From a virus (lineage: Duplodnaviria > Heunggongvirae > Uroviricota > Caudoviricetes): a stretch of DNA of 38,089 bases. The stretch lies in IMG/VR virus record IMGVR_UViG_2917886563_000005, one strand, 5' to 3'. Below the pieces are notes generated by a model, which worked only from the letters and a program-made list of their open reading frames with translations, was not told the origin of the DNA and did no database searches. A program made the position numbers and the translations under genes. Positions within the stretch are counted from its first letter, which is position 1. Each line of letters starts with the position of its first letter. Positions 22,870 to 25,232 of the stretch are shown here, in pieces.

Positions 22870-22926
22870 AAAAAAACATGCGTTGCGGTACGCATTTATT
22901 GCAAAAAAGCCCCGCATCGCGAGGCT
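22870..22926 (-). terminator. Two tandem intrinsic terminators downstream of the lysis cassette
   Basis: Minus-strand hairpins agccucg-cgaug-cggggcu + uuuuuug (22900..22926) and augcgu-accgca-acgcau + guuuuuuu (22870..22896). Confidence 0.55.
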
Positions 22927-23395: not shown

Positions 23396-23868
23396 ACCTC
23401 AATCTCTCTGACCGTTCCGCCAGCCTCTTTGAATTTTGCAATCAGGCTGTCAGCCTTATGCTCGAACTGACCATAACCAGCCCCCGGCAGTGAAGCCCAG
23501 ATATTGCTGCAACGGTCGATTGCCTGACGGATATCACCGCGATCAATCATCGGCAAAGCGCCACGCTCCTTAATCTGCTGCAGCGCAACAGCGTCCTGGC
23601 TTTTTGGAGAGAAGTCTTTCAGTCCAAGCTGTTTACGGTAAGCATCCCACCAACGGGAAAGAAGCTGGTAACGTCCGGCTGCTGTTGATTTGAGTTTTGG
23701 GTTTAGCGTGACAAGTTTGCGAGGGTGATCGGAGTAATCAGTGAATAGCTCTCCGCCAACAATGACGTCATAACCATGATTTCTGGTTTTCTGTCGTCCG
23801 TTATCTGTTCCCTCTGACCACGCCAGCATATCGAGGAACGCCTTACGTTGATTATTGATTTCCACCAT
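23392..23868 (-). CDS. R: Endolysin, lambda R-type lytic transglycosylase, 158 aa
   Basis: [39 protein letters not shown]... near-identical to recalled lambda R. Confidence 0.9.
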
Positions 23869-24175
23869 CTTCTACTCCGGCTTTTTTAGCAGCGAAGCGT
23901 TTGATAAGCGAACCAATCGAGTCAGTACCGATGTAGCCGATGAACACGCTCGTTATATAAGCGAGGTTGCTACTTAGTCCGGCGAAGTCGAGAAGGTCAC
24001 GAATGAACCAGGCGATAATGGCGCACATCGTTGCGTCGATTACTGTTTTTGCAAACGCACCGCCATTATATCTGCCGCGAAGGTACGCCATTGCAAACGC
24101 AAGGATTGCCCCGATGCCTTGTTCCTTTGCCGCGAGAATGGCGGCTAACAGGTCATGTTTTTCTGGCATCTTCAT
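23852..24175 (-). CDS. S: Holin/antiholin, lambda S-type, 107 aa with dual start (Met1 24175, Met3 24169)
   Basis: [41 protein letters not shown]... near-identical to recalled lambda S. Confidence 0.9.
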
Positions 24176-24290
24176 GTCTTACCCCCAATAAGGGGATTTG
24201 CTCTATTTAATTAGGAATAAGGTCGATTACTGATAGAACAAATCCAGGCTACTGTGTTTAGTAATCAGATTTGTTCGTGACCGATATGCA

Positions 24291-24330
24291 CGGGCAAAAC
24301 GGCATGAGGTTGTTAGCGCAACCTCATGCC
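24291..24330 (-). terminator. tR'-like intrinsic terminator (12-bp perfect stem) between the late promoter and S
   Basis: ggcatgaggttg-ttagcg-caacctcatgcc; minus-strand RNA is followed by GUUUUGCCCG. Confidence 0.6.
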
Positions 24331-24466
24331 ACCCGCTTTCACGAAGCCAGCCATTGCGCTGGTTTTCTTTTATGCAAAGCACACCGCACCGTAGCCACAG
24401 CGGATAAGGTGATTATTTTTGTCTGTCTGGTATTTGGTTTGATGTGCTTTCAGAAAGGCCGTGCTT

Positions 24467-24508
24467 AAAACGCAAAAAGCCCCGAGCTATTAACTCAGGG
24501 CTTTATTT
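24467..24508 (-). terminator. Additional intrinsic terminator ~30-60 nt downstream of the pR'-like start
   Basis: Minus-strand gcccugag-uuaauag-cucggggc followed by uuuuugcguuuu. Confidence 0.55.
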
Positions 24509-24537
24509 AACGAGTGCATTTATCCATCGTTGGGTCA

Positions 24538-24566
24538 AATTTACCCAACTTTATTCAAAAAGTCAA
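24538..24566 (-). promoter_or_regulatory. Late promoter pR'-like (-35 TTGACT, 17-bp spacer, -10 TAAATT); a Q-utilisation site is expected to overlap
   Basis: Hexamers read on the minus strand immediately downstream of Q, as in lambda. Confidence 0.65.
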
Positions 24567-24608
24567 TATTATGCCGTTAATATGTTGTCATCCGTGGCAA
24601 TCATGCTG

Positions 24609-25232
24609 CTAACGTGTGACCGCATTCAAAATGTTGTCTGCGATTGACTCTTCCTTGTGGCATTGCACCACCAGAGCGTCATACAGCGGCTTAACAGTGC
24701 GTGACCAGGTGGGTTGAGTAAGGTTTGGGATTAGCATCGTTACAGCGCGATATGCGGCGCTTGCTGGCATTCTTGAATAGCCGACACCTTTGCATCTTCC
24801 GCACTCTTTCTCAACAACTCTCCCCCACTGCTCTGTTTTGGCTATATCAACCGCACGGCCTGTACCGTGGCAATCTCTGCATCTTGCGCCCGGCGTCGCG
24901 GCACTACGGCAATAATCCGCATAAGCGAATGTTGCGAGCACTTGCAGTACCTTTGCCTTAGTATTTCCTTCAAGCTTTGCCACACCACGGTATTTCCCCG
25001 ATACCTTGTGTGCAAATTGCATCAGATAGTTGATAGCCTTTTGTTTGTCGTTCTGGCTGAGTTCATGCTTACCGCAGAATGCAGCCATTCCGAATCCGGC
25101 TTGTGATTGCGCCATCCCCATAGCAGCCATCACATCAGTACCGGAAAGAGAGTCAGAAGCCGTGGCCCGTGGTGAGTCACTCATCATCGGGCTTTTTGGC
25201 GAATGAAATTTAGCTACGCTTTCGAGTCTCAT
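24609..25232 (-). CDS. Q: Late antiterminator Q (lambda-type), 207 aa
   Basis: From [28 protein letters not shown]... matches recalled lambda Q; ATGA overlap with the upstream gene. Confidence 0.9.

Follow-up and report, generated by a model that had tools for sequence, protein, structure and literature searches.

Probable P22/HK022-type late-gene switch and a covarying RNA stem ahead of the holin gene in a mosaic P22-like prophage

Results

Organization of the locus

The window, by which we mean the whole analysed stretch of 38,089 nucleotides, represents a P22-like prophage or phage of mosaic composition, oriented on the minus strand. Its virion genes (window 1-24000) are P22-like and 95-96% identical to those of phages IME10 and APC_JM3.2; Q, S, R and Rz are lambda-like. 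Minus-strand open reading frames of the region considered here are Q, the holin gene S, R and Rz, and all features dealt with below (promoter, both hairpins, Q and S) share this strand. The start codon of S at 24175 corresponds to +357 from the predicted RNA start. The genes and the promoter region are as follows:

24609..25232, minus: Q antiterminator gene, 207 aa (stop codon 24609-24611; Pfam Antiterm PF03589, E = 1e-57)
24538..24566, minus: pR' late promoter (-35 TTGACT 24561-24566; -10 TAAATT 24538-24543)
24544-24560, minus: 17-nt pR' spacer, putative Q-binding part of qut by lambda homology
24526..24531, minus: predicted transcription start 24531 and -10-like AACGAT, equivalent to lambda 44587-44592
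24509..24531, minus: small 5' stem-loop of the leader (AACGA.../...UCGUU), +1..+23, from MFE and consensus folds
23852..24175, minus: holin gene S (dual start), first gene of the late operon (ORF; Pfam Phage_holin_3_1; aligns with lambda S)

Promoter pR', qut and the start of the leader

The pR'-like hexamers pointed out in the initial annotation are indeed there: a consensus scan places TTGACT-17-TAAATT at 24566..24538 on the minus strand. Such hexamer matches are not above chance by themselves (3 found, 4.5 expected), and what identifies pR' is its base-for-base homology to lambda pR' together with its position 43 nt past the Q stop codon. Upon alignment, the hexamers are exactly those of lambda and 15 of 17 spacer bases are the same; the two that vary also differ between phages whose Q is essentially identical. 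The Q protein itself shares 206 of 207 residues (99.5%) with lambda Q. The bases homologous to our promoter are labelled PR' and qut in the records of HK544 and P22.

AACGAT occupies +1..+6 in the aligned sequences of the window, lambda and P22, and the P22 record annotates the base homologous to 24531 as the RNA 5' nucleotide. By analogy with lambda, where this role is established, we take AACGAT to be the sigma-70-dependent pause element used by Q. Leader positions +9, +11, +15 and +17 (window 24515-24523) differ from lambda in all short-type leaders (defined below), and the base past the lambda pause position is changed in them from C16 G17 to C16 A17. With these differences in the initial transcribed sequence, the position or behaviour of the pause could differ from lambda's +16/+17. 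The small 5' stem-loop is without covariation support, since its pairs do not vary.

Alignment of the leader with lambda

The window matches lambda nearly base for base from inside Q through the promoter, its spacer and AACGAT, and the match drops past +8. In place of some 430 nt of lambda, which comprise the 6S body, tR', orf-64 and the next segment, the window has about 170 nt. Identity picks up again at CTTCGTGAAAGCGGGTGG and runs into S. On the lambda map, +1 falls at 44587, the U-run of tR' begins at 44774 and S starts at 45186. The elements shared with the lambda arrangement (pR'-qut-6S-tR', 44587-44781) are thus the hexamers, AACGAT and the S leader from 45017 onward, whereas the 194-nt 6S body, the tR' hairpin, orf-64 and the LPR2 region belong to lambda only; the predicted window RNA has about 60 nt against 194.

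This alignment bears on the identity of the two hairpins noted between pR' and S. The distal one (hairpin 2) had been proposed to correspond to the stem of lambda tR'. Its lambda homologue is located at 45031-45060 (+445..+474) instead, in the S leader and about 250 nt downstream of tR', which lies at about 44730-44781. Consequently hairpin 2 is not the tR' stem, and the proximal hairpin 1 is not the 6S body either. We also considered hairpin 2 as the lambda small RNA LPR2, and rejected it: the LPR2 probe target (44816-44850) belongs to a lambda segment that is absent from the window.

Hairpin 1 and the predicted 60-nt RNA

24466..24504, minus: hairpin 1, tR' of the P22/HK022-type leader (stem-loop 24476-24504, U-run to about 24466)

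Hairpin 1 lies at +28..+56, counting from 24531, and is the top-scoring terminator-like site of the scan within a 4-kb region (13 pairs, 6 of them G-C, a loop of 3, then UUUUUGCGUUUU). It has what defines an intrinsic terminator: a G+C-rich stem, a short loop and an adjoining U-run. Its terminator d-score is +21, compared with +25 to +30 for the calibrators, on a rough scale with an approximate d'Aubenton-Carafa-type formula, which under-scores lambda tR' too (-2.7). The 66-nt leader RNA folds with -23.3 kcal/mol (z = -4.6). The RNA 3' end is predicted near 24470-24474, which would yield a transcript of about 58-62 nt.

Across about 70 loci, the stem of hairpin 1 is invariant and its loop is variable (TTAATAG, TTTAACC or TTTAACAG). 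The P22 record carries the annotation "t late or tR'; antiterminated by gene 23 protein" at +31..+59. Alignment shows that its stem is that of hairpin 1 and that the loop alone differs, being TTTAACC in P22 and TTAATAG in the window. Moreover, in locus L014 the bases past the U-run of hairpin 1 are those past lambda tR', which puts hairpin 1 at the tR' position.

The possibility that hairpin 1 is simply the lambda 6S body, named beforehand as an outcome that would overturn the terminator reading, was checked by the same alignment. Lambda homology stops by about +23/+27, the remainder is unrelated and the U-run ends align only loosely, which rules out the 6S body; hairpin 1 is a tR' of the P22 type. 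A boxB-like reading of hairpin 1 (GCCCUGAG...) is ruled out by stem length and loop. The proposal of a lambda-type pR'/qut region with a strong intrinsic terminator 30-60 nt downstream is supported, and judging from the sequence a constitutive RNA of about 60 nt is expected unless Q acts.

Distribution and known relatives

The 501-nt Q-S interval is 97-98.6% identical to those of HK544, HK140, HK106, mEp234, HK022 and Sf101. Among 124 IMG/VR viral loci, this qut is followed either by a leader of the lambda 6S type (about 51) or by one of the short type, as in the window (about 70), and by no others. Of 5426 complete E. coli genomes, 334 also carry the short leader, which is unannotated there. 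In the records of HK022, HK544, HK140, mEp234 and Sf101, PR' and qut are labelled and no terminator is. Unlike the window, HK022 has a U/U mismatch in hairpin 1.

P22 (P late/qut/t late = tR', gene 23; GenBank BK000583) shares with the window the Q family, the promoter, qut and the leader plan up to the holin gene, with the terminator stem at +31..+59 in P22 and at +28..+56 here. The spacers between terminator and S leader are only about 55-60% identical, and hairpin 2 of P22 contains a mismatch and is followed by UGAUCU, where the window has GUUUU. Phages of the 21/Sf6 type likewise make a short leader RNA, with a terminator no more than about 55 nt from the promoter and then the S leader with hairpin 2, but their Q protein, promoter and terminator are unrelated to those of the window. 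In two 21-type loci, tRNA-Asn and tRNA-Thr genes are situated between tR' and the S leader (L004, 6443-6700; L356, i.e. Sf6, 681-921), with the hairpin 2 domain directly downstream of them; a search of the window for tRNA genes gave none.

Near-identical lambda S was also encountered in loci such as L196-L218 and L223-L228, from assemblies that bear the names Cohnella, Flavobacterium, Pedobacter, Shewanella and Kitasatospora, among others. The contigs are often of 3.5 kb or 48.5 kb and of low coverage, and lambda S in these unrelated assemblies most likely represents contamination with lambda DNA.

Hairpin 2 and its terminator-like properties

Hairpin 2 has a 12-bp stem free of mismatches, located at 24330..24301 on the minus strand (+202..+231), with -20.7 kcal/mol for the hairpin alone and z = -5.3 in a 60-nt context. 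The stem of the supposed second terminator ahead of the holin gene is hence real. Its terminator character is another matter. The tail is GUUUUGCC (GUUUU), with 4 U, and because the stem is trailed by GUUUU only, hairpin 2 falls outside the terminator pattern; it is absent from the terminator list of the scan, which asks for a U-run of at least 5 in the 8 positions adjoining the stem. On the same rough scale as above, its d-score is -16 in the window, -22 in lambda, -30 in the commonest variant and -47 and -58 in types B and C. The U-run has decayed in diverged relatives, where UGAUUU, UGAUCU or GGUUU is read instead, and their inner stem is weaker. To speak of two terminators in tandem was accordingly an overstatement: hairpin 2 is sub-threshold, and its U-run decays while the enclosing helices covary.

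The hairpin 2 block is the same behind lambda-type, short-type and phage-21-type Q/promoter modules, and it is missing from some short-type leaders. Hairpin 2 travels with the lysis cassette rather than with the promoter. The cassette is paired with at least three different Q/promoter modules.

The paired base change in hairpin 2

Paired base changes that keep the stem intact had been noted relative to lambda. Such a change exists at position 5:26, which is U:A in the window and G:C in lambda, but it does not extend to covariation within the family. HK022 and HK544 have a G/A mismatch there, and across 123 loci the combinations are G-C (31), U-C (18), A-C (36), G-A (25), A-A (9) and U-A (4). 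The position is thus unpaired in 88 of 123 loci and in 48 of 67 distinct variants, and the paired states (G-C and U-A) are rarer than independence predicts. We therefore ruled out this change as covariation; with two independently polymorphic sites facing each other, it is a coincidence. The perfect U:A version of hairpin 2 is itself rare (4 of 123 loci).

The facing 5:26 sites (window 24321-24326 and 24305) are unusually polymorphic, with G/A/T and C/A/T, respectively, amid sequences that are otherwise 95-99% identical. The 6-nt loop of hairpin 2 (24311-24320) occurs in both orientations, CGCTAA versus TTAGCG and CGTCAA versus TTGACG (loci L009 and L195, and type-B loci such as L132 and L255). 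These flips look like at least two independent inversions, a signature of template switching at a DNA hairpin.

A three-tier stem in the S leader

Folding of the S leader places hairpin 2 at the tip of a larger structure:

24274..24345, minus: three-tier stem domain with hairpin 2, 72 nt (folds, pair counts; homologous to lambda 45031-45060 and flanks)
24339-24345 / 24274-24280, minus: outermost tier, UUCGUGA / UCACGAA (RNAalifold of 19 short-type leaders)
24331-24336 / 24290-24295, minus: outer helix, GCGGGU / GCCCGU (folds, covariation)
24301-24330, minus: inner 12-bp hairpin (folds)
24296-24300, minus: GUUUU bulge, 5-6 nt, enclosed by the outer helix (folds)

The diverged homologues used for comparison were P22-type viral loci and two loci from Citrobacter (L219) and Kluyvera (L221), the latter two retrieved with the S protein; they were the only informative loci of the S-protein scan of the genome collection, the rest being mostly lambda DNA contamination. 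Over 67 distinct variants, the 18 pairs of the inner hairpin and outer helix are 91% paired, compared with 33-56% when the partners are slid, a count made on the same sequences from which the structure was derived. The outer helix is 98% paired although 5 of its 6 pairs vary, through the changes C-G to U-A (18), G.U to A-U (20), G-C to G.U (19) and U.G to C-G (16). Compensations in the inner stem are U-A to C-G (17 of 67) and G-C to A-U. Since the changes mostly separate two or three clades, independent compensatory events are few. On the other strand, the frequent G.U pairs would turn into A/C mismatches, which indicates that the folded species is the late-strand RNA. The third tier partly overlaps the search anchors; loci L219 and L221, obtained free of anchors, have it as well.

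Altogether the three-tier stem comprises 25 predicted pairs, broken by the bulge and an internal loop; an RNase III processing stem would be expected to have about 20 or more base pairs in a mostly continuous helix and to be cleaved by the enzyme. The whole 362-nt leader folds much better than its shuffled versions (z = -6.35). Against Rfam, the whole window gave zero matches at gathering score and, in 23800-25000, chance-level ones only at E < 1.

Spacer domain and hairpin M

24369..24456, minus: structured spacer domain (helix 24441-24456 with 24369-24385 and an inner 4-bp helix; RNAalifold)
24347..24362, minus: hairpin M, CCAGC-GCAAUG-GCUGG (core conserved)

Between window-type and P22-type leaders, the long-range spacer helix of 15 pairs is 100% paired, with 3-4 compensatory pairs and none broken, and the bases between its arms have diverged by about 40%. 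Such a pattern points to a structured RNA domain at 24369-24456. Hairpin M shows one A-U to C-G compensation, in Citrobacter L219. Read on the plus strand, it is a terminator-like site at 24343-24366 with a TTTTCTTTT tail. A function as plus-strand terminator was rejected: it would require an antisense transcript, yet a consensus scan returned no plus-strand promoter-like site nearby, and the A-run pairs in the spacer helix. We also discarded a 51-aa minus-strand open reading frame at 24227-24382, whose GTG start is not kept in P22-type leaders and which overlaps the covarying stem.

Discussion

Very probably, this mosaic P22-like prophage carries here a late-gene switch that depends on Q, in the version shared by P22, HK022, HK544 and many relatives, with hairpin 2 as the apex of a stem. 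The switch as such has been described before: it represents the antitermination system studied most thoroughly, in its P22/HK022 version. Homology, anatomy and covariation could be observed directly in the sequences; pausing, the action of Q, the efficiency of termination and the role of the stem are what we infer. RNA polymerase would start constitutively at pR' (+1 = 24531) and, as in lambda, would pause at AACGAT. Without Q, it would stop at hairpin 1, the P22-type tR', and release the RNA of about 60 nt. When present, Q would bind the promoter spacer and join the paused polymerase, in the way known from lambda and P22. By the same analogy, the modified polymerase would then ignore hairpin 1 and every later terminator-like hairpin, and S, R, Rz and the virion genes would thereby be transcribed.

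One might object that the 60-nt RNA is itself the main product, a constitutive prophage regulatory RNA like StxS or lambda 6S, and the switch secondary. Lambda, 21, 82 and P22 are all known to make short pR' RNAs, and StxS, the short pR' RNA of Stx phages, is a small RNA that regulates rpoS and stx1 (PMC7547250); lambda 6S RNA and the 63-nt LPR2 bind Hfq (bioRxiv 10.1101/2024.10.31.621285). StxS, 6S and LPR2 are short RNAs from pR' or the leader, present in lysogens, some of them Hfq-bound and regulatory, though none is similar in sequence to our 60-nt RNA. Its predicted architecture (A/U-rich and single-stranded at the 5' side, then a terminator hairpin with a U tail) would suit such a role, and +1 to +75 is very highly conserved even between clades with diverged spacers. 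The conservation of +1..+60 is, however, accounted for just as well by what pausing, loading of Q and termination require, and an Rfam family for this RNA was not found. We regard regulation as the main business of the RNA as unlikely. What may be said is that, being carried by about 6% of complete E. coli genomes, it is a candidate constitutive prophage small RNA of the StxS kind; as late-leader RNAs from other lambdoid phages were recently shown to be regulatory, a constitutive 60-nt RNA in hundreds of E. coli genomes is a cheap candidate.

The more difficult question concerns hairpin 2. It could be a fail-safe second intrinsic terminator, which catches leakage through tR' before the lethal holin gene and which Q overrides too. 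Its perfect, G+C-rich 12-bp stem (-20.7 kcal/mol) followed by GUUUU, 125 nt before S, invites this reading, and the more distant S homologues of Intestinirhabdus, Apirhabdus and Photorhabdus have canonical terminators 40-110 nt ahead of the holin gene. Luk and Szybalski reportedly described tandem terminators in the lambda late leader in 1983. With only 4 U, its place off the scan list and a d-score of -16 that is still lower in relatives, the hairpin nevertheless makes a poor terminator; in P22-type leaders the U-run has become UGAUUU or UGAUCU, yet the helices around it covary. Moreover, 48 of 67 variants have a 1x1 mismatch in the stem, and the curated records of P22 and Sf6 label tR' and nothing at hairpin 2. 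This pattern of conservation speaks against termination as the selected function of hairpin 2, and a dedicated second terminator appears to us rather improbable, if somewhat less so than a primarily regulatory 60-nt RNA. The perfect-stem version of the window may still provide weak back-up termination.

Less probable still is that the block serves purely at the DNA level, as a 'boundary sequence' for swapping of modules by recombination, with no function as RNA. Three or more unrelated modules meet the S leader from the upstream side, all of them a few bases at most from CTTCGTGAAAGCGGG, and the CUS-3 record applies the label 'bsq3; boundary sequence' to the 241 bp upstream of S, a part of which is 100% identical to window 24176-24345; the concept is attributed to Clark et al. 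2001, as cited in PMC3029335. While that label implies a recombination linker, the window block shows covariation of the RNA type. A linker need not preserve pairing, and here 18 pairs are kept 91% paired through compensatory and strand-specific G.U changes in a leader that as a whole folds far better than shuffled sequences (z = -6.35). Recombination linker and RNA roles are compatible, and both may apply.

Taken together, hairpin 2 is most likely a structural RNA element, and on the covariation evidence it is best read as the apical part of the 72-nt three-tier stem in the leader of the lysis cassette. We suggest that the stem probably acts in the full-length late RNA, through processing (by RNase III or otherwise), through stability or through control of lysis-gene expression; leak-proofing is another candidate. 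RNase III sites in the lambda late leader are reportedly the subject of a paper by Daniels et al. (1988), to judge by its title. We hypothesize, tentatively but with somewhat more conviction than we grant a second terminator, that the three-tier stem and the spacer helix constitute an undescribed cis-acting RNA element and that, separately, the 60-nt RNA is a small RNA acting on the host. If true, such an element would be common to lambda, P22, 21-type and HK022-type phages and would set processing, stability or leak-proofing of the lysis mRNA.

Two general points emerge. In sequence collections, the leader of about 60 nt, and not the 194-nt 6S, is the commoner partner of the lambda-type Q. 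Further, the hairpin upstream of S, in lambda itself too, belongs to a 72-nt stem that shows RNA-type covariation and has no Rfam entry, and public records treat the S-leader block only as a recombination 'boundary sequence'. Given how well the switch is known, the structured and covarying S leader is what remains as a modest curiosity.

Two minor features outside the leader deserve mention. Inside Q, on the plus strand and antisense to the gene, TTGCGAGCACTTGC at 24932-24945 is a CII-box-like motif (TTGC-N6-TTGC). Lambda has paQ in the same place, and in P22 the C1-activated antisense promoter a23 is annotated there; the number of such motifs in the window (4 found, 3.05 expected) is not above chance. 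The other is a terminator-like hairpin with GTTTTTTT at 22878-22895 on the minus strand, some 60 nt past Rz, where HK544 has a labelled rho-independent terminator inside the late operon; it is a further site for the Q-modified polymerase to read through.
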